Source of the DNA: a virus
Reading direction: 5' to 3' (one strand)
Length of the DNA: 64,000 nucleotides
IMG/VR virus record: IMGVR_UViG_3300032304_001060
Coordinates: 30,729 to 94,728 of that record
Position numbers and translations under genes: made by a program. Below are positions 7,021 to 64,000 of this stretch, in pieces; position 1 is the stretch's first letter, and each line of letters begins with the position of its first letter. The notes beneath the pieces were generated by a model. The model searched no databases. It was not told where the DNA came from and saw only the letters and a list, made by a program, of their open reading frames with translations.

Positions 7021-8283
7021 ATGGCATACGTTGTTAAGCGTGGCGATCGCTACACAGGCTATTATCGCAAGGGCGGTAAACGCCTCTCTGCTGGCACATG
7101 GCCAACGAAAACCGAGGCCGAATATCACGCCATGCAAGCGGACAGATCGGCTGGCACAGAGCCTTCTAGGGCTGTAAATGACCTATCGACCTATCTGGAT
7201 TCATGGCTCAAGAGTGCCGATCTCATGCCTATCACGCTCAAGGGATATAGATCGGTACTGGAGAAGTACGTCATGGCGGAATTAGGCGCGGTCAAAGTTA
7301 CTTCAATTTCAAAGCGGGCGATCTCAGATTTACTTCAAAAATTGAAGGCGCAGGGCGTGGGGTCTGCAACTATCCAGCAGGTCAAGGCGAGCCTAGGGTC
7401 GGCCTTCTCGCACCTCGTGGCCACAGGCGAACTAGCCGAGAACCCCACCCATGGCATCAAGGTCAGAGCACGCCATGCAGACATTGAGAAGATCATCGAG
7501 CCTGAAGAATTCAGGAAGATACTCAGTCACCTTCAGATCCAAGGTGCAAAGTTACTTGCCCAATTCCTAGTCGCATCAGGGTGCAGATTCGGAGAGGCGA
7601 CCGAGATTCGGGTCAAGGACATCAATCTCAAGACAGGCGAGATATTCGTCCAGAGGCGAGTCAGCGATCTGGGCAAGAGCCATAGCAATAGATTCATGGT
7701 CATTGATGCCACAAAGTCGGGTCATAAGCGAAGCCTGACCATAAGCAAAGCCTTACTACAAGAGATTCGAGACTATGTCTCAGCAAAAGCCCTATCAAAA
7801 GATGATCTGCTGTTCTCAAGGTTACTGGTGTGTGAACAAAGTAAAATAATAGATTCTCGTGGTGAAAAGTCTAAGCGACCATTCGCCCAAGACGGAAAAC
7901 TGTTCCAGCATGGAACGCTGTACGCCTATACCCATGGGCGGTGCAGGTGCGGTGAATGCCGAGAGGCGATGCGAGAGTATCGTCGAAAGGCAAAGCCATA
8001 CCAGAAGCAACAGCGATTCATCGACCAAACGAGTCACCTGCCACGAGATGTATGGAGAAAAATCTGGAACAAAGCAATAGACAAGTCCGCAATCGGGTGG
8101 ACTCCTAGAACCCATGACCTACGGCACGCTAATGCCACTCAACTTCTAAAAGGTGGGGTGGACTTGCACGAGGTCAAGGAAAGGCTAGGTCACCAATCGA
8201 TCAAGACGACAGAGCGATACCTACATCGCCTTCGTCACAACCAGTCAACGGCAGGGGAACTTGCCAATGACTTTTTGGAGTGA
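7021..8283 (+). CDS. int: tyrosine integrase/recombinase with inserted zinc-finger-like segment
   Basis: GCRFGE, TKSG, HDLRH, LGH, TERY catalytic set; AGGAGG RBS. Confidence 0.92.
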   Translation: MAYVVKRGDRYTGYYRKGGKRLSAGTWPTKTEAEYHAMQADRSAGTEPSRAVNDLSTYLDSWLKSADLMPITLKGYRSVLEKYVMAELGAVKVTSISKRAISDLLQKLKAQGVGSATIQQVKASLGSAFSHLVATGELAENPTHGIKVRARHADIEKIIEPEEFRKILSHLQIQGAKLLAQFLVASGCRFGEATEIRVKDINLKTGEIFVQRRVSDLGKSHSNRFMVIDATKSGHKRSLTISKALLQEIRDYVSAKALSKDDLLFSRLLVCEQSKIIDSRGEKSKRPFAQDGKLFQHGTLYAYTHGRCRCGECREAMREYRRKAKPYQKQQRFIDQTSHLPRDVWRKIWNKAIDKSAIGWTPRTHDLRHANATQLLKGGVDLHEVKERLGHQSIKTTERYLHRLRHNQSTAGELANDFLE

Positions 8284-30444: not shown

Positions 30445-31376
30445 CATAAGTAAGCAGCCTTCCCTAGTACCGATGTCTTTGCCGTTTTAATTCCGTGCTC
30501 AATCTCAGCCTCTGTCATGTCACCAACATCCTTGACGTCAATTCCACGATAGTTGAAATAGTATAAATCCATACCGTACTTTCTAGCAAAGCCACGCATC
30601 TGTTCATTAGCCGTATGACCAGCCTTGTCATTATCGAACGCAGCAATAATCTTTGGAGCACGGCGCAAAATCTTGGCTTGCTCTTCACTCATGATTGCAC
30701 CAAAAGTGGACACAGCGTTATGGCCTAAGCCAGTTAACCGAACAGCGTCTAGCGGTGATTCAACAACGATGAGGTCATGGGTTGAACTCATGATGTGAAC
30801 TCCAAAGACTGTCCTTGACTTCTTAACTCCCGCAGGTTGATTGCGAAAGAAGCGTCCACGAGCACCCTTCTCTTGCCAACCCCATAACGAACCGTCGTCA
30901 GGGTCTCTGATAGGAAGAATCCATGCCTCATTGCTCTTGTCCCAAAGAACTCCATGTACATTTACTGGACCTATTTTTAAGAATCGTTTTTTTAACTCTA
31001 TCTCTGGTGGCTCTGTGTACACAGCAAGTCGAGCCTCAGACATTGCGATCGTCTCTTCAGGTTGCACGTACTGTGGTAAATCTTTTATTCGGCGCATAAG
31101 AGAGTCGAGAGGAATCTCAACATTTTCGCCAATGTAGTCCTGTGCATCAAAATAACTTATGCCTTTAACATCAGCAACAAGTGTGAATATATTTCCCTTG
31201 TAACCACAAGAGAAGCAGATGTGTGCTCCACTCTCAGAATTTATCCACCATGATGGTGAGTGATCCTCTTTGCCTGTGCGCTTCTTGTGCATTGGGCATA
31301 GGCCATTAACCTCAACTCCTCGCTGTGCAAAAAGTTGTAGGTCAAGTCCTACGAGGACACGCTCGACATCAATCAC
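30444..31376 (-). CDS. dnaG: DNA primase (CHC2 zinc finger plus TOPRIM)
   Basis: CPMH...CFSC, VVESPLD, FDNDKAG, KDVGDM. Confidence 0.92.
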   Translation of the reverse strand: MIDVERVLVGLDLQLFAQRGVEVNGLCPMHKKRTGKEDHSPSWWINSESGAHICFSCGYKGNIFTLVADVKGISYFDAQDYIGENVEIPLDSLMRRIKDLPQYVQPEETIAMSEARLAVYTEPPEIELKKRFLKIGPVNVHGVLWDKSNEAWILPIRDPDDGSLWGWQEKGARGRFFRNQPAGVKKSRTVFGVHIMSSTHDLIVVESPLDAVRLTGLGHNAVSTFGAIMSEEQAKILRRAPKIIAAFDNDKAGHTANEQMRGFARKYGMDLYYFNYRGIDVKDVGDMTEAEIEHGIKTAKTSVLGKAAYL

Positions 31377-54179: not shown

Positions 54180-54779
54180 TTACACTCCATAAGGGTCTAT
54201 ACCATAAGCGCCGTTGCCGTAGCCATAGGTAACTGTTTGGTTGTTAAAATCGGCAAAATTAAGGAACTGCGGATCATTGACGAGTTCTTCGGCGTTGACC
54301 TGGTTGCAGTCGATAGTGACTACAGAATAGCGGTCTTTGTATCGTCCGCGTGGTAAAACACGGGTTGGAACGAATACCTTTTGCTGGAATACAACGCGGT
54401 CCTTGATATGGTCCGTTGGGGTATCTACGATATCAGGAAGCAAACGGTTAAGGTCATCAACAGCCACCACAAGACGCAAGGTATCTGTTACGTAGAAGCC
54501 TCGTTCGTTCATGACGTTAGTTGAACGGATCTGTTGAGCCATAATTACAGGCAAATCAAATGGGGCATTCCAACGACGACCTTGGGTCTCTTCTTCACTG
54601 GAGACATCATAGACAGGATCGACCCACGTATCGTAGTTAGCGGCCAAGGCGGTAGGGTCCCAGGCCCACCATTTGACGGTAGTCCCTACTGGGTCACGAA
54701 GTTCATCGACGATACCCTCATCCATAGATAGGGTCTCAAAGTCGATCTTAAATCTTCCCTGGACTTTATTACCACGCAT
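54180..54779 (-). CDS. head-tail connector/head-closure-like protein
   Basis: DPVYD..GRRW, ERGFY..DTL, DRVVF; structural gene context. Confidence 0.55.
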   Translation of the reverse strand: MRGNKVQGRFKIDFETLSMDEGIVDELRDPVGTTVKWWAWDPTALAANYDTWVDPVYDVSSEEETQGRRWNAPFDLPVIMAQQIRSTNVMNERGFYVTDTLRLVVAVDDLNRLLPDIVDTPTDHIKDRVVFQQKVFVPTRVLPRGRYKDRYSVVTIDCNQVNAEELVNDPQFLNFADFNNQTVTYGYGNGAYGIDPYGV

Positions 54780-54821: not shown

Positions 54822-55571
54822 TTATTTTAAGTTTCCTCGCTGATGGTCTGGGTATGGGGCGTTGTCTAAGTGAACGCCTTTAAAATACCTTCTTCCAGCC
54901 ATATGGGGCTTCTCTAGATCATCGGTAGAACGTTCTTTTCCTAAAGCGCTACTTTCCGCAACTTCATTTGCGTGTAGTTCTTTGTCCTGTATTAGTGCTA
55001 ACTCAAACCCCTCAACAAAATACCTTGGTATAGGGATAAAGGCTCCCAACGCGTCACCCTTCTTTACAGAGACAGTGTGATTTGGGACTGTAACTTTAAG
55101 GTTAAAAGTAAAGTCTCTTCGAATGTTGTCTGTTTCAATAACCCCCGTCATAGCAACGCAACCTTCAACGAACATGTTAGGTGGCTGAATGGTCATCAAG
55201 TTAATTCCAGGAGGTGTTTTTAAAGCAAAGTGATTTTGGACTGTAATAATCCCAGAACCAAATCCATTTGTAATAAATTGTTTTGGAAACTCTTCATCAT
55301 CTTTAAAAGTTATTACAGCAGGTAACAGTTCCCCATACCATACAACATCAAAGTCTCTTGCAGATTGAACCATAAACCCATATTGATTTCCAACACTTAA
55401 AGGTAAACAGTAGTAAAAGTGTGAGGTAAACCAATCTCTTTTTGGAACACCTTTTAGCGGAACGATGATGTCCTTATAGAATCCGTCATTATCAAGAGAA
55501 TGAGGTACAACCATAAGGGTATTGTTTGGGACTTCATGCCCAGGATCATTAAGATAGTTTTTTTCAGTCAT
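54822..55571 (-). CDS. DUF6065-like protein
   Basis: YCLPL..GNQYGF, FGSGII, TPPG.NL....PPN, GVIETD, FTFN. Confidence 0.75.
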   Translation of the reverse strand: MTEKNYLNDPGHEVPNNTLMVVPHSLDNDGFYKDIIVPLKGVPKRDWFTSHFYYCLPLSVGNQYGFMVQSARDFDVVWYGELLPAVITFKDDEEFPKQFITNGFGSGIITVQNHFALKTPPGINLMTIQPPNMFVEGCVAMTGVIETDNIRRDFTFNLKVTVPNHTVSVKKGDALGAFIPIPRYFVEGFELALIQDKELHANEVAESSALGKERSTDDLEKPHMAGRRYFKGVHLDNAPYPDHQRGNLK

Positions 55572-56415
55572 AGAGGAGTCCCGTTTCTTTACAAAACTTT
55601 AAAAACTTTTGATAATTAATTTTATAATCTTTTAATAATTCTTTCTTTGATTTTTTATTTTCAATATCAATTAATCTTGTTACCCTGTTTTTCTTGTCCC
55701 AAGGTTTGGGGTCACTGTTATACGCAATCCTGTCTATTGCGTAGAAGTGATAGAATATTGGATCGGTAAAAGCACAGACTTCATATCCTGCTTGATATGC
55801 TCTAATTGAGTTTATTGTTTCTTCCAAAAAGAAACTAACATCAGAAATAATAGGTACTTCTAGTAAGAATTTTTTTTCTGAAAAAAGTAAGGCTCCTTGT
55901 ATGTAGTAACTTTTTGCAGTACTCGATATCCGATTTTTTACTCCCCACTCACCAAACGTAACTCCTTTAAAAGAACACATAACGTGAGATTGATCTTGTA
56001 ACGGTTGTCTATTTCCAGTTGAGTCAATCGAATAAGCAGCAGGATAAGAAGATAACACCAATTTTGGTTTTGTTGTTTTTTCTTTTTCATACAAAGCCAT
56101 TAGTTTTGTGTCCCACGACTTTTCCGAGAACATATGGGCATCTAACTGTAGGTAATACGTGTAGTTGCTAAATTGAGAAACCGCGACCGCTCTAGCCCAA
56201 GAAACTCCATACGAATCATCTGGATTAATTTTTATGTATCGAAGTTGTTCCATCTCAATAAAACTAAGATCAGGATGATCTGTGCTCTGAGATACTATTG
56301 AAAACAAAAGATTTTCTGGGTAATCAGCATCCTCAAAAAACCGTTTAACTGTATTTTCTAACTCAGTCTCCATGTAAGAGACTATCGAAATTAGAATCTT
56401 CCTATTGTTGACCAT
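55564..56415 (-). CDS. GT60 glycosyltransferase (Skp1-hydroxyproline GlcNAc-transferase-like)
   Basis: ISIVSY...T...F..A.YP, GVSWAR, YYLQLDAH (DxH), WD, VLSSYP, EE..SIRAY..GY, FYHFY. Confidence 0.85.
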   Translation of the reverse strand: MVNNRKILISIVSYMETELENTVKRFFEDADYPENLLFSIVSQSTDHPDLSFIEMEQLRYIKINPDDSYGVSWARAVAVSQFSNYTYYLQLDAHMFSEKSWDTKLMALYEKEKTTKPKLVLSSYPAAYSIDSTGNRQPLQDQSHVMCSFKGVTFGEWGVKNRISSTAKSYYIQGALLFSEKKFLLEVPIISDVSFFLEETINSIRAYQAGYEVCAFTDPIFYHFYAIDRIAYNSDPKPWDKKNRVTRLIDIENKKSKKELLKDYKINYQKFLKFCKETGLLYD

Positions 56416-56944
56416 CTGCATAAGCCCAAAATGACGCAATAGTGTAACGTGTATTTCCTTCTACCTTTGTTACTCCGTGCAAATGGTCTGCATCCCCTAA
56501 ATGAATTGCAAGTTTCCCACTTTCTGGCGTTACTTCAATATTGTAATTTGGATAGTATGTATGGCCACCTTCATAATCCTCATTTAAATAAATGATGGCT
56601 CCAAATTTTCTGTGCTCTAATCCTTTTACTTCTGTATTGGTCATGTCATCTGCATGAGGGGGCTGCTCCATACCAGGGTACCAACGACAGATAGTTAGCC
56701 CATCTTCTCTTACTTTTTTCCCGTAAGAAGACTCAATGACGTCTTGAACTCTGCGGGATACATCCACCATAAAATCACCAAGTTCGTTCCCGAAGTATTC
56801 GTAGGCTGCTTGTACTCCGATAGTTCTTTTATCCCAAAAGTCTACAGATGAGGGTTCCCATAATTCGGTTTCTTTTACAAGGTTTAAAACAAACAAGACT
56901 TCTTCATTAGTCAAGAACTTATCAACGATCGTTGTTTTTAGCAT
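56402..56944 (-). CDS. prolyl-4-hydroxylase-like 2OG-Fe(II) oxygenase
   Basis: PHAD, IIYLNEDYEGG, HGVTKV, RYT: HxD...H triad plus 2OG-binding Arg. Confidence 0.9.
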   Translation of the reverse strand: MLKTTIVDKFLTNEEVLFVLNLVKETELWEPSSVDFWDKRTIGVQAAYEYFGNELGDFMVDVSRRVQDVIESSYGKKVREDGLTICRWYPGMEQPPHADDMTNTEVKGLEHRKFGAIIYLNEDYEGGHTYYPNYNIEVTPESGKLAIHLGDADHLHGVTKVEGNTRYTIASFWAYADGQQ

Positions 56945-57172
56945 TTACCATTTTCCTATCGGGCATTTTGCTGCTTGTAGTTTGGTTTTGAGTTCCATAA
57001 AACACCCACATTTCTTACACTGTTTTGTTAACTTTACCAATTCTGGGCATTCCATGCATATCTGCATTCGCTCTATATTTATGGTGCTTTCTGCATACTT
57101 GGTTTGTGGGTTTAAAAAATCTAACGGAGTTACACCATGTTTTTCCCGATACTCCTCCCACCTCGACTTCAT
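56945..57172 (-). CDS. DUF6171-like Cys-rich protein
   Basis: R..IC..C...CKKCGCF..LKT....CP.GKW. Confidence 0.8.
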   Translation of the reverse strand: MKSRWEEYREKHGVTPLDFLNPQTKYAESTINIERMQICMECPELVKLTKQCKKCGCFMELKTKLQAAKCPIGKW

Positions 57173-57173
57173 C

Positions 57174-57554
57174 TTAAGGAACTAATCCATTCATATTTCT
57201 ATCTGTTAGTACAAATGCGTTATCAATAAACTTAGCATGTGGAGAACTGACATAAAGACCATACGGATAGTCCAGCATCTTTAATACCTGTGGATTACTC
57301 AGTAGAATACTTCCAAAGTACTCGCTAGTCTGGAAATCTTCCAAAATGATTCCATCTTTTAGTAGGCGCACTGTTATGCCGTCATGATCAGGGTGTTCAT
57401 TAGATATGTCGACTACTTCATCGGCATTTAAAAAAATGTCAGCATGTTCTACGCTTAACGCCAGATCATATAAACAATCTTGGTCAATTACCCATACTAA
57501 TGCTATTCCATCTGTTCCAGTATGAACAAAGTGGATACCTTCATCAGTTAACAT
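57174..57554 (-). CDS. hypothetical protein
   Basis: 126 aa, AAGGAG RBS, SILLSNPQV. Confidence 0.75.
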   Translation of the reverse strand: MLTDEGIHFVHTGTDGIALVWVIDQDCLYDLALSVEHADIFLNADEVVDISNEHPDHDGITVRLLKDGIILEDFQTSEYFGSILLSNPQVLKMLDYPYGLYVSSPHAKFIDNAFVLTDRNMNGLVP

Positions 57555-57574
57555 TTTTGTTCTCCTTTATACAA

Positions 57575-57610
57575 ATGTGTGTACCTTACAATATCGTAAG
57601 GTACACACAT
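57575..57610 (-). terminator. perfect 15-bp hairpin (attenuator or mRNA stabiliser)
   Basis: ATGTGTGTACCTTAC-N6-GTAAGGTACACACAT; short U run on the minus strand. Confidence 0.75.
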
Positions 57611-57614
57611 CCGT

Positions 57615-58220
57615 TTAGCAAGCGAAGACATTGAATGAGCCAGATGCTGGTGAACAAGTGCTTCCTGCACCAAGTTCTCCGCACGATGATGTGCTGGTAC
57701 AGCATGCGACCGCTATCTGTCCACTGGTGCATCGCCTTAGGGTAGGAGCAGGCGGTGGTGGCGGTGGTGGCGGAGGTGGAGGAGGTGGAGGAGGTGGAGG
57801 AGGAGGAGGAGGTGGAGGAGGAGGAGGTGGAGGAGGAGGTGGAGGAGGTGGAGGAGGTGGAGGAGGTGGAGGAGGAGGAGGAGGAGGTGGAGGAGGAGGA
57901 GGAGGTGGAGTAGGTGCCACAGGAGTAACAGAGTTACTTGCTGCAGATGAGTCTGAGAGAACTGAATAATCTGTTGTGCCAGAAATTGTAAAAGTATAAG
58001 CCGTTCCATTTGAAAGGCCTGAAACTGTAATAGGGGAACTTGATCCAGTGCCTGCAATCGATCCTGGAGAAGAAAGTACGGTGTAGGTGATTCCGTTCTT
58101 GCCAATATAAGAGGAGGCTGTGAAAGTTACAGTAGCAGCGGCGTCACCAGCAACAGCACTGCCAGTACCAGGTGTCGTTGGTTTTTTACCGCTAGAACCT
58201 GTAGTTCCCAGAACTGCCAT
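57615..58220 (-). CDS. Fn3-domain protein with 53-residue polyproline tract and Cys-rich tail
   Basis: Fn3 motif SPITVSGLSNGTAYTFT; P53; six Cys in the last 38 aa; TAATG coupling. Confidence 0.85.
   Translation of the reverse strand: MAVLGTTGSSGKKPTTPGTGSAVAGDAAATVTFTASSYIGKNGITYTVLSSPGSIAGTGSSSPITVSGLSNGTAYTFTISGTTDYSVLSDSSAASNSVTPVAPTPPPPPPPPPPPPPPPPPPPPPPPPPPPPPPPPPPPPPPPPPPPPPPPPPPPPPAPTLRRCTSGQIAVACCTSTSSCGELGAGSTCSPASGSFNVFAC
57750..57908. repeat. (NGG)53 triplet repeat encoding polyproline
   Basis: AGG/TGG/CGG triplets only (CCT/CCA/CCG codons, no CCC). Confidence 0.95.
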
Positions 58221-58582
58221 TACGCACTCAAATCGCCAACAAGAACCCAAGTATCTGTAGCACGCTTAATTAAAGTTGCAGATGCCCACTGTGTTCGTAA
58301 CTTCAATCCAGGTGTTGCATTGATAGTGACTCCAGCGCCTGCGGTAATTGTGAATTGTCCTGTAGCAACTTGGAGCATATCGATCTGAGCGCCGATTGGG
58401 AATGGCACGGAAGAGTTAGGTGGCACAGTAAGAGTTGCAGCAGTGGTGCTGTTGTTTAACTCCAGGAAGCGATCCTTATCAGCCAACACCAATGTGTAGT
58501 TGTTGGTTGTGATAGTCGGAGTGGCAAGGTTCTTAGAGCCAACTCCTACAAATGCTGAATCGCCATTGCTGCGAATTGCCAT
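58220..58582 (-). CDS. virion fibre-associated domain protein
   Basis: NYTLVLAD...LTVPPNSSVPFPIG...ATLIKRATDTWVLVGDL. Confidence 0.8.
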   Translation of the reverse strand: MAIRSNGDSAFVGVGSKNLATPTITTNNYTLVLADKDRFLELNNSTTAATLTVPPNSSVPFPIGAQIDMLQVATGQFTITAGAGVTINATPGLKLRTQWASATLIKRATDTWVLVGDLSA

Positions 58583-58978: not shown

Positions 58979-59542
58979 TTAGCCTATTTTCTCTAGATTG
59001 TTGGTAATTGCAGTTCTATAGATGGGGGCGATATCTTCTTTGAGTAGGTCTCGGAATATCTGAGTCGCTTCATCTTGGCGCCCTACCCACCATCCGCTGA
59101 CTGCCTTCTCAAAGCGCAGTACGTATTCTCCCAGATAATCAAGATCAATAGGTAGAGCAGATAAGTGTGTTCTGGAGAAGAGGAGCCCCACCTCACACGC
59201 TGTATATGACTCTTGCCATTTCTTTGTCTGCTCATAGTGACGGGCCAAAATAAACCACGCCTCTGGTCGATGAGGCAGATATGCGATGGCCTTAAGGATG
59301 AGGTCCATCACCGTATGCTCACGGTTCTGTTGGTGCTTAAAGCACTCAGAGGACTTAAGCAGTGCAGCATAGACGTACTCTGGATGGCTCTCGTAGCCGT
59401 ACTCTGCAGTACGTAGATAGAACGAAACCGCTGATGCGGTCTGTCCTTCCTTCTCATATTCTTGCGCCAACTTAAAACTAAGTTCAGGGTTAAATGGATC
59501 ATCAGATAAGGTGATGATCATGTCGTTGATAGTCTCAAACAT
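58979..59542 (-). CDS. TPR-repeat protein
   Basis: LAQEYE..GQ.ASA.SFY, AIAYLPHRPEAW. Confidence 0.8.
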   Translation of the reverse strand: MFETINDMIITLSDDPFNPELSFKLAQEYEKEGQTASAVSFYLRTAEYGYESHPEYVYAALLKSSECFKHQQNREHTVMDLILKAIAYLPHRPEAWFILARHYEQTKKWQESYTACEVGLLFSRTHLSALPIDLDYLGEYVLRFEKAVSGWWVGRQDEATQIFRDLLKEDIAPIYRTAITNNLEKIG

Positions 59543-60533
59543 TTAGCGCCTCCTGTACAAGTTCGTCTACAACATCCTTCGGTATCTCTAATGCGAAGGC
59601 GGCGTTATCAACGAACCCGAACCCAACAACTAAGTTCTCATTAACGATAGCGGCTCCAGCACAGAACTCAATCTGTCCATTGAGGAATGACCAGTTCTCT
59701 GGAGATAGGCCAATGAGTTTAAAGTTATCGTCCCAGACACAGAGGCGATGGCGATAGGTGCCGTTCTTCTGTCCTAGGTAATTCTTGAATAGAACAACCT
59801 CGTGCGTGATAGCGATGTAGTAATCGCCCCAACGAATAACTTGAGAACCACCACGCTGATCAGCATTTGCACGGGCGCCTTGAGTATGAGAGATATGAAC
59901 TGAATCTCCAGTAACGGGATCTGCCTCTACCACTTCGGTAGGGCTAGTCCACTTCACATACTGGAACTGACGATCAAGGATAGGCATCCAGTTCTTCTCG
60001 CAGTACGAGTCCTTGTTGATAGGCGCCTCCACACGCACACGGGAAATCTCCTTGGCAGTCCACGCCTCTTTGTTAATCTCTAACTCAGATAACTCCATGC
60101 GGCCAACGCCGTTGGTCGTGGTATCACGACGGACACCTGTGGCGTAGTACTTGCCATCCCACTTAACGAGGCGAGCATCTTCTTCGCCAACGAATGTCCA
60201 GATGGGAGTGACATCTAGTTCAGATGTATCTATCTGGCAGTACTTGACGATGTTCAAGTCGTCATCAAGTTTAAGCAGATAGTTAGTCGTAACTAGACGG
60301 CGATCTTCCTCTGGATGCAGATAGGAGAGAGGTCCCCAGACACTTGGGAAGCGCTGGTTATTCTCTGCATGGTAGAGGGTGTAGTTGATGTGGCGCAAGA
60401 TACATAGGATGTCGCCATCATCGTCTACGAAGAGAGATGGATTCATCAAGCCAGTTCCGTTTGTTACGGATGCTGGAATAATGAGGGGCCGTAATTTTCC
60501 GCCTTGAGAGGTTGCTCTTTGTACCAGATTCAT
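59535..60533 (-). CDS. five-bladed beta-propeller glycoside hydrolase/transferase (GH130/GT91-like)
   Basis: NPS, EDARL, EKNWMP, RGGS, HE, YRHR, IEFCAG. Confidence 0.75.
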   Translation of the reverse strand: MNLVQRATSQGGKLRPLIIPASVTNGTGLMNPSLFVDDDGDILCILRHINYTLYHAENNQRFPSVWGPLSYLHPEEDRRLVTTNYLLKLDDDLNIVKYCQIDTSELDVTPIWTFVGEEDARLVKWDGKYYATGVRRDTTTNGVGRMELSELEINKEAWTAKEISRVRVEAPINKDSYCEKNWMPILDRQFQYVKWTSPTEVVEADPVTGDSVHISHTQGARANADQRGGSQVIRWGDYYIAITHEVVLFKNYLGQKNGTYRHRLCVWDDNFKLIGLSPENWSFLNGQIEFCAGAAIVNENLVVGFGFVDNAAFALEIPKDVVDELVQEALNV

Positions 60534-60826: not shown

Positions 60827-61723
60827 TTAGTAGTATAAATAAATTACGCCGTTGCCGCCATTGCCGCCTGTACCTGACCTATTGGTACCACCACCACCAC
60901 CACCACCATCTCCACCGTTACCGCCAGTGTTTCCAGATGCGTTGGCGCCAGCACCGCGATAGCCACCGCCACCGCCACCAGCACCATCAGTTACAGCACC
61001 AGTGCAAGTTGAACCAGTACCACCATTATACAAATCACCATTGCCGCCTGCGCCACCTGTTGTGGTTCCAGTAGGAGAAGCATTTGTATTATTGGCACCT
61101 CCACCACCGCCACCAATTAAACCTCTGCCACCTGCACCGCCAGTGGTTGAAGTAGCCGCAGTTGCGGTGTTTCCATAACCACCACCACCACCTGATACAC
61201 CAGCGCCGCCAGCAACTCCATTTGTTGAACCACCACCACCGCCGCCTCCATAACCAACAGCGCCAGTAGCAGCGGCGGAAGGAGCGCCTGTATATGAAAC
61301 TCCACTTGCACTTGGTCCACCATTTCCAGCACCACCACCTGCGCCACCCATTGTTCCAGCAAGCGCTGCTAGGACACCACCACCACCAGCACCACCACCA
61401 GCAAAAACCATCCCAAATATAGTTGAGCCACCAGTACCACCACTGGAAACTGAACCACCAGTTCCTCCTGCACCTACAGTGCAAGTATTTGTTACATAAG
61501 TCCAACCAGCAGAATAACCACCACCACCACCACCACCACCTGCGCCACCAGCAACTGCGGTTTGGCTTCCACCACCACCTCCGCCGCCAATGCAAACTGC
61601 ATATACGCGTTTGATTTCAGCGGGGATTCCAGTAACCGATCCTGATGAAGTAATTGTTTGTTGTAGTTTTAATCCCAATGGAACATCAGAAAATGATGAA
61701 TTTGTATTTATCGTTTCGCTCAT
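60827..61723 (-). CDS. glycine-rich adhesin/fibre protein, copy A1
   Basis: polyGly motifs; C-terminal GVIYLYY. Confidence 0.85.
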   Translation of the reverse strand: MSETINTNSSFSDVPLGLKLQQTITSSGSVTGIPAEIKRVYAVCIGGGGGGGSQTAVAGGAGGGGGGGGYSAGWTYVTNTCTVGAGGTGGSVSSGGTGGSTIFGMVFAGGGAGGGGVLAALAGTMGGAGGGAGNGGPSASGVSYTGAPSAAATGAVGYGGGGGGGSTNGVAGGAGVSGGGGGYGNTATAATSTTGGAGGRGLIGGGGGGANNTNASPTGTTTGGAGGNGDLYNGGTGSTCTGAVTDGAGGGGGGYRGAGANASGNTGGNGGDGGGGGGGTNRSGTGGNGGNGVIYLYY

Positions 61724-61733
61724 TTAGTTTCCT

Positions 61734-62657
61734 TTAGTAGTAAAGATAAAGTACGCCGTTACCACCAGTGCCGCCTGTTCCTGAATTGTTTGCGGCTCCA
61801 CCACCGCCACCACCATCTCCGCCGTTACCGCCGTTGTTTCCTGAACCAGCAGCACCTACTCCTATGTAGCCACCGCCACCGCCGCCTGCGCCTGCGGTTA
61901 ATCCTGATGCAACTGTTGAACCTGCACCGCCGTTAAACAAGTCTCCGTTACCGCCAGCACCACCTGTTAAGGCTCCAAGTGGTAGTGCGTTGTTGTTGTA
62001 AGCACCACCGCCCCCGCCAGCAATTAAACCTCTACCACCAGCACCACCTGTTGCAGTGTTTGTAGAACTTGTTTGTAAGGCTGCAGCGCCACCTGAACTT
62101 GATACACCAGCAGCACCTGCACTGGCAGTAAAAGAATTTGCGCTACTTGATGCACTTGGTCCACCAGCACCATAACCTATGGTTCCACCTACTGCTGCGG
62201 CAGCCGATGGCGCACCTGTGTAACTAATTCCACTTGCTGAAGCACTTGGTGCAGCACCAACAGCAGATAATGCACCGCCACCGCCTGCGCCGCCCATTAC
62301 TGTGGCAGTTCCATTTGCAGTTCCAGAGCCACCTGCACCACCGCCTGCAAAAACCATCCCATAAACAGTTTCGCCACCGCGTGAACCATTGGATACGGAA
62401 CCGCCAACACCACCTGCACCTACAGTGCAAGTGTTGGTTACGTAAGTCCAGCCAGCAGAATAACCACCAGCCCCACCGCCACCACCTGCTCCCGTTGCAG
62501 AACCGCCACCACCACCACCTGCAATGCAAACTGCATATACACGTTTGATTTCAGCAGGAATTCCAGTAACTGAACCTGATGAGGTGATAGTTTGTTGTAG
62601 TTTTAATCCCAATGGAACATCAGAAAAAGATGAATTGGTGTTTATTGTTGCACTCAT
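61734..62657 (-). CDS. glycine-rich adhesin/fibre protein, copy A2
   Basis: N-terminus nearly identical to A1; C-terminal GVLYLYY. Confidence 0.85.
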   Translation of the reverse strand: MSATINTNSSFSDVPLGLKLQQTITSSGSVTGIPAEIKRVYAVCIAGGGGGGSATGAGGGGGAGGYSAGWTYVTNTCTVGAGGVGGSVSNGSRGGETVYGMVFAGGGAGGSGTANGTATVMGGAGGGGALSAVGAAPSASASGISYTGAPSAAAAVGGTIGYGAGGPSASSSANSFTASAGAAGVSSSGGAAALQTSSTNTATGGAGGRGLIAGGGGGAYNNNALPLGALTGGAGGNGDLFNGGAGSTVASGLTAGAGGGGGGYIGVGAAGSGNNGGNGGDGGGGGGAANNSGTGGTGGNGVLYLYY

Positions 62658-62669
62658 AATAGTTCCATT

Positions 62670-63521
62670 CTAATAGAAAATGTAAAGTATGCCTGCGCCG
62701 CCAGTGCCAGGTGCAGATGAGCCGTGTCCACCACCACCACCACCACCACCCAAACCACCATCGCCACCAGTAAATCCCGAAGCATTAGAGCCGTTACCTG
62801 CAATACCCGCACCACCACCGCCTGAGGTATTTGATGATGGGCTTGTAGAGCCCGTTCCACCTGTGTAAATAGTTCCATCTATACCAATGCCGTTACCACC
62901 GTTACCGCCTGTGCGTGTTCCTGTAGTAGTAGATGCAATTCCACCACCGCCACCAGCAAGACCAGAACCACCATTGCCACCAATGTTTGTTCCAGAACCT
63001 GCGGTGCCATTAGGCGCACCACCACCACCTGAAATACCGTTGCCACCATTAGCACCAGAAGTACCAGTTGCACCACCTGCGCCAGAGCCAACATTGTTGG
63101 AAGCGCCACCAGGAATACCCCAATAATTAGTTCCACCAGCACCGCTATTGCCACCCGCGCCCAGTGTGCCACTATCACCTGCGCCAGCAATGATGTGACC
63201 ATAGCGTGTGTATCCTGCAGAACTTCCATTAGGAACTCCACCTGCACCAATGATGCAAGAAGATTGTGGGATAGTCCAACCCCAAGAGATACCACCTGCG
63301 CCACCACCGTTGCCTTGATTCACGCCTCTTTGACCACCACCAGTCAGAATGACATAGACAAATGGAATATCAGCGGGAATTGTTACCGCACCCGATGAAG
63401 TAATTGTTTGGCGTAGTTGTAAACCAAATGGAACTGCAAAAGATGTTTGTGCAATAGGAGTAGAAGAATTATTCCAATTTAAAACCTGCCCCGTTGGGCG
63501 TTTATTTAATGGGTTTGACAT
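62670..63521 (-). CDS. glycine-rich adhesin/fibre protein, copy B1
   Basis: GLQLRQTITSSG, polyGly motifs; C-terminal GILYIFY. Confidence 0.85.
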   Translation of the reverse strand: MSNPLNKRPTGQVLNWNNSSTPIAQTSFAVPFGLQLRQTITSSGAVTIPADIPFVYVILTGGGQRGVNQGNGGGAGGISWGWTIPQSSCIIGAGGVPNGSSAGYTRYGHIIAGAGDSGTLGAGGNSGAGGTNYWGIPGGASNNVGSGAGGATGTSGANGGNGISGGGGAPNGTAGSGTNIGGNGGSGLAGGGGGIASTTTGTRTGGNGGNGIGIDGTIYTGGTGSTSPSSNTSGGGGAGIAGNGSNASGFTGGDGGLGGGGGGGGHGSSAPGTGGAGILYIFY

Positions 63522-63529
63522 TTGCTCTC

Positions 63530-64000
63530 CTAGTAAAAAATGTAAAGTATGCCTGCGCCGCCAGTACCGCCCGTGCCACCACCCGAACCACCACCACCAC
63601 CGCCGCCAAGCCCACCAGTGCCACCTAAAGTGGTTGAAGCGCTAGAACCATTAGCAGCGATACCAGCGCCACCGCCACCGCCACCGTTTGTTGAAGTACC
63701 AGTTGTTCCTGTACCACCCGTATAAATAGTTCCATCAATACCTAAACCGTTACCACCATTACCGCCTGTACGTGTACCTGTGCTTCCTAGTGCGCCGCCA
63801 CCACCGCCACCGACTAAGCCTGAGCCACCATTACCGCCCGTATTTGTTCCAGTGCCACCTGCATTTGAGCGCCCAGCACCGCCACCTGAAATACCATTAC
63901 CACCATTACCACCAACAGAATTGAGTGTTGTGTTAGCGCTACCACCGCCACCACCAGCACCAGCAGTTCCACTTACGTTAGCGCTTGCACTAGCCGCGCC
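63530..64000 (-). CDS. glycine-rich adhesin/fibre protein, copy B2 (5' end outside window)
   Basis: Gly-rich frame ending GAGILYIFY-TAG; shares GIDGTIYTGG with B1. Confidence 0.8.
   Translation of the reverse strand, partial: GAASASANVSGTAGAGGGGGSANTTLNSVGGNGGNGISGGGAGRSNAGGTGTNTGGNGGSGLVGGGGGGALGSTGTRTGGNGGNGLGIDGTIYTGGTGTTGTSTNGGGGGGAGIAANGSSASTTLGGTGGLGGGGGGGSGGGTGGTGGAGILYIFY

Follow-up and report, generated by a model that had tools for sequence, protein, structure and literature searches.

A candidate phage module for modifying a polyproline tail-associated protein, with prolyl 4-hydroxylase-type and GT60 glycosyltransferase genes beside a tract of 53 prolines

We analysed a 64,000-nucleotide stretch of viral DNA (hereafter the window; positions 30,729 to 94,728 of IMG/VR virus record IMGVR_UViG_3300032304_001060), which forms the last 64 kb of a complete phage genome of 94,728 bp with direct terminal repeats. 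This uncultured phage is contractile-tailed; its sheath protein shares 36-40% identity with the sheath proteins of Streptomyces phages and 31% with that of Bacillus phage BCD7. A DNA similarity search against GenBank phages gave no match for the window. On its minus strand lies a gene for a protein with 53 consecutive prolines (P53), followed by a hairpin and by genes for a protein of no known family, a DUF6171 protein, a 2-oxoglutarate (2OG)- and Fe(II)-dependent oxygenase of the prolyl 4-hydroxylase (P4H) type, a GT60 glycosyltransferase (GT) and a DUF6065 protein (Table 1). A preliminary description made from the sequence alone had listed these genes, and their presence and order were borne out here; they lie within the tail-fibre region. 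We give an even chance to the view that together they serve the phage as a module for the post-translational modification of a tail-associated protein. The 120-aa protein encoded just upstream matches the C-terminal parts of PHROG families of virion, tail and tail-fibre proteins (E 4e-23 to 6e-5), and in five related loci (L025, L046, L181, L222 and L226) the fibre genes that immediately precede the Fn3 gene end in homologous C-termini. The five genes downstream of the hairpin are separated by gaps of 1, 0, -14/-38 and -8 nt, the overlap of the P4H and GT60 genes being 14-38 nt according to the choice of start codon and that of the GT60 and DUF6065 genes 8 nt. NCBIfam gave no match for any of seven proteins.

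The polyproline protein consists of an Fn3-like domain (aa 1-104), the P53 tract (aa 105-157) and a Cys-rich tail of 44 aa with six Cys (aa 158-201), and stretches rich in Ser and Thr lie on both sides of the tract. The count of 53 prolines is exact, with 35 CCT, 15 CCA and 3 CCG codons. The window protein itself had no fn3 match in Pfam. An ortholog in the related locus L025 (54% identity, E 2e-27) matched fn3 at E 1.5e-4, under threshold, and several of the 963 homologs of the N-terminal domain carry a precomputed PF00041 match; the label given to this domain in the preliminary description is therefore reasonable and is kept in the form Fn3-like. The tract is hypervariable among close relatives, being P53, (TPPPA)n, (PPSF)n or (PPFF)n, which is consistent with a spacer in which composition counts for more than the precise sequence. 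Motifs of extensins and other hydroxyproline-rich glycoproteins (SPPPP or YxY repeats) were not found in the window protein, which has one uninterrupted P53 run. The hairpin begins directly after the stop codon of the polyproline gene, 60 nt ahead of the next gene, and its folding energy (-29.5 kcal/mol, z -7.7) was matched by none of 200 shuffled sequences. The hairpin could serve to attenuate transcription as a terminator or to stabilise the RNA. The 126-aa protein that follows had no match in Pfam, PHROG or NCBIfam. A small gene holds the same position in related cassettes, and the window protein is 26% identical to its counterpart in L241 (tblastn, E 7e-9), with no detectable homology to those in L003 and L025, which are homologous to each other.

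Table 1. Features of the locus, in order of transcription (positions are those of the window)
Feature	Position	Strand	Remarks
120-aa upstream protein	58220..58582	-	similar to C-terminal domains found in tail-fibre or minor tail proteins; stop codon overlapping the polyproline start
Fn3-like P53 protein, putative substrate	57615..58220	-	201 aa; start ATG at 58220, overlapping the upstream stop codon
P53 tract	57750..57908	-	53 uninterrupted proline codons
Hairpin	57571..57614	-	20 bp stem, 4-nt loop
126-aa protein	57174..57554	-	no known family
DUF6171 protein	56945..57172	-	75 aa, Cys6
P4H-type 2OG-Fe(II) oxygenase	56402..56944	-	180 aa
GT60 glycosyltransferase	55564..56439	-	likely start ATG at 56415, giving 283 aa
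DUF6065 protein	54822..55571	-	249 aa
199-aa protein after the cassette	54180..54779	-	38-41% identity, syntenic in relatives L003-L013

The oxygenase matched PF13640 (2OG-FeII_Oxy_3) with 35.5 bits against a cut-off of 27 (E 2e-8) and has the intact HxD..H..R series of P4Hs that had been predicted for it (H97, D99, H156 and R166). Its HxD aligns with that of Bacillus anthracis P4H, and the triad is conserved in the phage and SAR86 homologs. Sequence matches in the PDB were all to B. anthracis P4H, Chlamydomonas P4H, P3H1 and LH3, and were weak (best E 9.5e-4). Judged by its closest solved relatives, which are peptidyl prolyl or lysyl hydroxylases, the oxygenase is a candidate peptidyl-prolyl hydroxylase. 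As a separate observation, two P4H-like paralogs from other loci (L050:6355-6972 and L068:379-1014) no longer have the HxD and distal His that would bind iron, and are probably non-catalytic.

The glycosyltransferase matched PF11397 (GlcNAc) with 104 bits against a cut-off of 21 (E 1.5e-29), and the motifs ISIVSY, GVSWAR, QLDAH and SSYP, from which GT60 had been proposed, were all found in it. PF11397 was present on all 25 of its homologs, among which a DxH metal motif (D100, H102) is invariant. The closest homologs (P0001-P0003) were 70-93% identical. Single-protein scans of viral and metagenome contigs revealed no close GT60 relatives, and in a protein-level comparison with GenBank phages the only GT60 match was in Xanthomonas phage XacN1 (24% identity). 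The GT60 profile had no sequence match in the PDB. When the AlphaFold2 model of the enzyme (predicted local distance difference test, pLDDT, 93) was compared by Foldseek, as the preliminary description had proposed, the top matches were all polypeptide N-acetylgalactosamine (GalNAc)-transferases of family GT27 (GalNAc-T2, T4, T1, T10 and T12; E 4e-11 to 1e-9). These GT27 enzymes start mucin-type O-glycosylation. On the basis of the modelled fold, a GT-A fold nearest to theirs, the enzyme would act on protein acceptors. GT60 is defined partly by Gnt1, which transfers N-acetylglucosamine (GlcNAc) to hydroxyproline (Hyp), and the family holds both this Hyp-specific enzyme and Ser/Thr-specific polypeptide alpha-GlcNAc-transferases (PMC8724618).

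Both DUF assignments were confirmed, with E 1.7e-7 for DUF6171 (PF19668; 32 bits against 27) and E 6.4e-35 for DUF6065 (PF19541; 121 bits against 26.6). DUF6171 has six invariant Cys in the arrangement CxxC..CxxCxC..C; it probably binds metal, to judge from this pattern, and is likely to be an accessory subunit of the cassette. For the DUF6065 model, which is of moderate confidence only (pLDDT 58), the top 20 structural matches were all dUTPases or dCTP deaminases (Z 9.9-6.1). The comparison with dUTPases at the sequence level was not significant (E 0.73; hhalign probability 0.2), and dUTPase motifs were not recovered there. On its model, DUF6065 is probably a dUTPase-like beta-barrel, and its role is probably that of an accessory protein of the hydroxylase module. 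Three other loci (L017, L044 and L045) have two or three tandem DUF6065 paralogs each, which could form heterotrimers if the dUTPase-like trimeric fold is right.

The dUTPase-like fold of the model would also suit an activity on nucleic acid or nucleotides, that is, DNA hypermodification of the base J or hydroxymethylcytosine type, with DUF6065 as a dUTPase-like nucleotide enzyme. Phage pairs of 2OG oxygenase and glycosyltransferase are known to modify DNA, and the PHROG families that best match the oxygenase are labelled 'DNA endonuclease'. However, the PF13640 match and the peptidyl hydroxylases among the solved relatives are not those of TET/JBP or AlkB enzymes, the glycosyltransferase belongs to GT60 and has its closest fold among polypeptide GalNAc-transferases, the genes lie among tail-fibre genes and correlate with Pro-rich proteins (see below), and the motifs of dUTPases were not recovered in DUF6065 at the sequence level. 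DNA or nucleotide modification was rejected on these grounds, and we regard it as highly improbable.

To relate the enzymes to their putative substrate, we used a sample anchored on the Fn3 domain and thus independent of the enzymes, which comprised 117 viral loci in 50 clusters (80% identity). The counts cover the 40 clusters with at least 3 kb of downstream sequence; features were scored within 7 kb, and a tail was considered Pro-rich if it had at least 10 P in 30 aa. A P4H-like gene occurred in 26 of the 27 clusters with a Pro-rich tail and in 5 of the 13 without (Fisher p 1.3e-4, a value that overstates independence because two Pro-rich proteins served as seeds and the clusters are related by descent), and in three of these five a second, Pro-rich Fn3 gene was found in the same locus. 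The co-occurrence anticipated in the preliminary description was therefore found for the hydroxylase. DUF6065 was present in 23 of the 27 clusters with a Pro-rich tail and in 6 of the 13 others. The same co-occurrence did not extend to GT60, which was found in one cluster of each group (1/27 and 1/13), or just 2 of 40. Four loci (L222, L230, L241 and L245) match the window architecture closely, with an Fn3 domain, polyproline runs of 8-19, a Cys tail, a small gene and DUF6171, and their P4H and DUF6065 proteins are 49-55% and 63-68% identical to those of the window, respectively. All four have the order DUF6171-P4H-DUF6065 and lack GT60. In the commonest cluster of this sample (27 loci; L181:5704-11675), the Fn3 gene encodes four Fn3 domains and a (PPYF/PPFF)n tail and is followed by four P4H-like paralogs, two 250-aa genes with a HIPKTSG-like start and DUF6065, and there is no GT60. 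The two 250-aa genes had no Pfam match, and a sulfotransferase identity was not confirmed for them by Pfam.

A second sample was anchored on GT60 and comprised 50 viral, 41 genomic and 49 metagenomic loci. In the closest clade (L003-L013; 44-46% identity) the gene order is DUF6171-P4H-GT60-DUF6065-199-aa protein, with the exception of L013, where GT60 comes after DUF6065 and not before it. A polyproline gene lies directly upstream in every lineage that has the full cassette and enough upstream sequence, its non-repeat domains differing from lineage to lineage, and this position is kept in lineages that are just 34-55% identical. The polyproline protein of L003 and L011 has 664-688 aa and four tracts of P13-P25 that alternate with Cys-rich modules, whereas in L012 and L099 a P20 tract is followed by a Hint-like domain; L101 and L141 likewise have a polyproline gene upstream. 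In L025, the true ortholog of the window Fn3 protein has (FSFTP[AP])n in place of P53, and the cassette is expanded to two GT60, two P4H-like genes (found with a hidden Markov model built in this analysis) and two DUF6065. On the basis of the polyproline relatives without GT60 and of the gene order in L013, the conserved unit is a Pro-rich tail with DUF6171, P4H and DUF6065. Thus, the single cassette of substrate, P4H and GT60 that had been proposed is not the conserved unit, and gene order indicates that GT60 is an optional add-on inserted into the core module in the window lineage. The locus is apparently one instance of a recurrent and unpublished phage system rather than a one-off, in view of the L003-type and L181-type patterns examined.

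Two further observations were made in this sample. First, in L012 (3-638) and L099 (2-523) the polyproline tract is followed by the sequence GGG-C-LVGSTLV..., by appearance the start of a Hint/intein-type autoprocessing domain (no Pfam match), at which the protein could be cleaved or ligated. Second, the next-closest GT60 lineage (L093; 49% identity) has a 194-aa gene (7362-7946) with H-x-D...H directly upstream of GT60 and four P4H-like paralogs 5-8 kb downstream, and has neither DUF6171 nor DUF6065. The 194-aa gene had no Pfam match, and a cupin identity was not confirmed for it by Pfam.

Gene fusions link all four enzyme and accessory families (DUF6171, P4H, GT60 and DUF6065). The fusion of DUF6171 to GT60 is N-terminal in P0025 and C-terminal in L046-type phages, and Atlas clusters include fusions of DUF6065 with 2OG-FeII_Oxy_3 (84 viral proteins) and with Cupin_8/JmjC (73 bacterial proteins). 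A diatom protein (P0043) joins P4H to GT60. So does a single open reading frame of 1724 aa (L082:6936-12110) in a metagenome-assembled genome (MAG) of Rickettsiales, which combines two or three 2OG-Fe(II) oxygenase domains with six stretches matching PF11397 and a region resembling AhpC/TSA. In about 20 loci of SAR86 or gammaproteobacteria, the two genes also lie next to each other in divergent orientation (L053-L092 in SAR86 and other marine gammaproteobacteria; P4H PF13640 E 5e-17), which looks like a bacterial counterpart of the eukaryotic PhyA/Gnt1 pair. The pairing of P4H with GT60 thus recurs outside phages, the genes being adjacent in bacteria and the domains fused in the diatom protein and the Rickettsiales reading frame.

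The following sequence of events would account for the module. The Fn3-P53-Cys protein would be made in the host cytoplasm, where the oxygenase, with Fe(II), 2OG and O2, would turn prolines of its polyproline II (PPII) stalk into Hyp, and DUF6065 and DUF6171 would probably be accessory or targeting subunits. In the window lineage, the added GT60 would then transfer an N-acetylhexosamine (HexNAc) to the new hydroxyls and/or to neighbouring Ser and Thr, the sugar most likely being GlcNAc drawn from UDP-GlcNAc, which is abundant in the cytoplasm. The outcome would be a rigid, hydrophilic, extensin- or mucin-like stalk with a Cys-rich knob on the virion, which may serve adhesion or shielding, as the preliminary description had proposed. 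We infer here both the presence of the polyproline protein in the virion and the identity of the donor sugar as GlcNAc. Action of the hydroxylase on the window Pro tract is the best-supported of these steps, and we consider it probable. That GT60 acts on the same protein is plausible because it lies inside the operon, takes part in fusions and has a fold suggestive of protein acceptors, and we lean towards it. As for Hyp being the acceptor, we infer it from three facts: a pure P53 tract has no hydroxyl unless it is hydroxylated, P4H and GT60 form pairs or fusions in more than one domain of life, and GT60 loci without P4H adjoin repeats that contain Thr; this point falls somewhat short of an even chance. 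Taken together, the proposal that phages build Hyp-O-glycosylated, extensin- or mucin-like virion stalks in the bacterial cytoplasm, with P4H and GT60 enzymes homologous to PhyA and Gnt1 plus DUF6171 and DUF6065, is a tentative one, less probable in our view than its opposite.

Several results weigh against this proposal, and a number of them also fit separate roles for the two enzymes. The P4H module would then hydroxylate the Pro tract, for example to stiffen a PPII stalk, and GT60 would independently add HexNAc to Ser/Thr of the tract flanks, of the Cys-rich tail or of other virion proteins, which is mucin-type initiation and not Hyp-linked. The GT60 loci without P4H bear on this directly: they adjoin Thr-containing repeats, namely a (GPT)n collagen-like fibre in L046 and an exoprotein of the two-partner secretion (TPS) type with PT repeats, (APTAAPT)n, in L124-L126, and the acceptor may therefore be Ser/Thr rather than Hyp. 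Likewise, the Ser/Thr-specific members of GT60 and the Ser/Thr-rich flanks of P53 mean that a Hyp linkage is not required. The P53 tract itself is not conserved, since the closest homologs of the substrate carry (TPPP[A/V])n in its place, repeats that themselves contain Thr. In the dereplicated GT60-anchored sample, long polyproline runs were not significantly associated with P4H (p 0.14), the runs being confined to one clade. The scarcity of GT60 in the Fn3-anchored clusters, its absence from the four polyproline relatives that have the core cassette and the limited independence of those clusters belong here too. On the other hand, GT60 sits between P4H and DUF6065 in overlapping reading frames, the adjacency or fusion of P4H and GT60 recurs in bacteria and eukaryotes, and the tracts of the L003 type are pure Pro between Cys modules, all of which weigh against separate roles. 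We hold separate roles to be somewhat unlikely. The Hyp-glycosylation reading offered in the preliminary description stands as to gene identities and the link between P4H and Pro-rich tails, but not as to GT60, which falls outside the conserved unit. With regard to L124-L126, these metagenome contigs each have the bacterial TPS exoprotein with its 'PT repeat' tail, then directly a GT60 homolog, and no P4H, and on this arrangement they are a candidate bacterial mucin-type O-HexNAc system in their own right.

Other results that weigh against the proposed stalk modification concern the choice of substrate. The enzymes might be an auxiliary, or moron, cassette for host proteins or other phage proteins, with the polyproline gene as a mere hypervariable fibre linker; bacterial prolyl hydroxylase domain proteins, for instance, modify translation factors. 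The enzyme genes are indeed AT-rich, as described earlier (GC 0.34-0.40 versus 0.457 in the window and 0.47-0.54 in the flanking structural genes), which suggests a mobile insert. The SAR86 P4H-GT60 pairs have no adjacent Pro-rich gene, and in some other phages GT60 and DUF6065 lie in non-structural neighbourhoods, away from any repeat protein. Such a cassette is quite unlikely, in our opinion, given that P4H-like genes follow Pro-rich Fn3 tails at the frequencies reported above and that a Pro-rich gene lies directly upstream across lineages with unrelated N-terminal domains.

We compared the proposed stalk modification with known systems. In Dictyostelium and Toxoplasma, the P4H PhyA hydroxylates a Pro of Skp1, and the GT60 enzyme Gnt1 adds GlcNAc to it. 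The Skp1 pathway and the phage cassette share the same two enzyme families (PF13640 and PF11397) and a cytoplasmic location, and the genes are paired, or fused in the diatom and the Rickettsiales MAG. However, the cassette includes no Skp1, although no search aimed at Skp1 was made, the candidate acceptor in the phage is the homopolymeric polyproline stalk of a structural protein and not one specific Pro as in Skp1, the accessory DUF6171 and DUF6065 have no counterpart in the Skp1 pathway, and GT60 is optional in phages. In addition, no downstream extension enzymes of the PgtA, AgtA or Gat1 type were identified in the phage, where GH130-like and TPR genes lie 1.4 kb away. By analogy, the phage cassette at most works similarly to the Skp1 pathway and is not a member of it. 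A rigid polyproline II rod that would first be hydroxylated and then O-glycosylated resembles plant and algal extensins, and the extensin-like TPPP[A/V] repeats occur in the closest phage substrate homologs. Extensins are modified by P4H and then by Hyp-O-arabinosylation or galactosylation. Their glycosyltransferases belong to GT95, GT96, GT77 and GT31, not GT60, and act in the secretory pathway and not in the cytoplasm, and the phage P53 protein has neither Ser-Pro4 nor Tyr cross-link motifs.

Among viruses, the chlorovirus PBCV-1 has a prolyl 4-hydroxylase that acts on virus-encoded proline-rich repeats, according to the account of Eriksson et al. 1999 in PMC9301287. Both cases have a small monomeric viral P4H and viral Pro-rich repeat proteins as presumed substrates, whereas PBCV-1 infects a eukaryotic alga. 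To our knowledge, no GT60, DUF6065 or DUF6171 partners have been described for PBCV-1, and its substrate and enzyme genes have not been reported as one operon. Polyproline stretches joined to short Cys-rich domains are also found in the minicollagens of cnidarians (PMC2289959), which may be compared with the L003-type homolog. This is an analogy only, for the phage protein has no Gly-X-Y triplets and the biology is different. Mycobacteriophage glycosyltransferases, as summarized for Freeman et al. 2023 (PMC10527164) in PMC12619734, O-glycosylate the structural proteins of their own phages in the host cytoplasm. In our literature searches, neither a P4H-GT60 system nor Hyp-glycosylation turned up for bacteriophages, and the nearest precedents are the PBCV-1 P4H, the protist Skp1 pathway, the modification of plant extensins and the glycosylation of mycobacteriophage virions. 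The mycobacteriophage study reportedly concerns other glycosyltransferase families and Ser/Thr-rich C-terminal extensions of capsid and tail-tube proteins, with no hydroxylase.

P4H-type genes are among the commonest auxiliary genes in aquatic viromes, and their use has been called 'cryptic' (PMC9301287). The present locus and its relatives put such a gene directly beside a plausible substrate, so that the question can be tested with four small proteins. If the proposed modification is true, it would explain the role of these abundant viral genes, point to a prokaryotic or phage origin of the Skp1 modification enzymes, and be a new kind of virion post-translational modification with a bearing on phage adsorption, stability and immune recognition. 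It would also provide the first functional contexts for DUF6065, with its hydroxylase link and modelled dUTPase-like fold, and for DUF6171, with its GT60 link and Cys6. Should the GT60 step be directed to Hyp, Hyp-O-glycosylation would for the first time be known from outside the eukaryotes, and the Skp1 pathway would have a counterpart among prokaryotes.

Finally, some features were observed further upstream of the cassette. A TPR protein of 187 aa overlaps a 332-aa protein (window 58979-60533, minus strand), and GH130-like families are among the nearest Atlas clusters of the latter (score 0.95; PF04041 on 32% of members). The fibre-gene neighbourhood of L003, L011 and L046 contains a GT2-TPR fusion with a weak match to the peptide-substrate-binding TPR domain of P4Hs. 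The TPR and GH130-like genes could be a further glycan-handling or substrate-binding component. Still further upstream (window 60827-64000, minus strand) are at least four tandem glycine-rich paralogs (PF21722 Gly_rich_2, E 1.9e-5) that end in Y(L/I)(Y/F)Y; the Pro runs read on the plus strand of the same interval are antisense frames of these paralogs and not genes.

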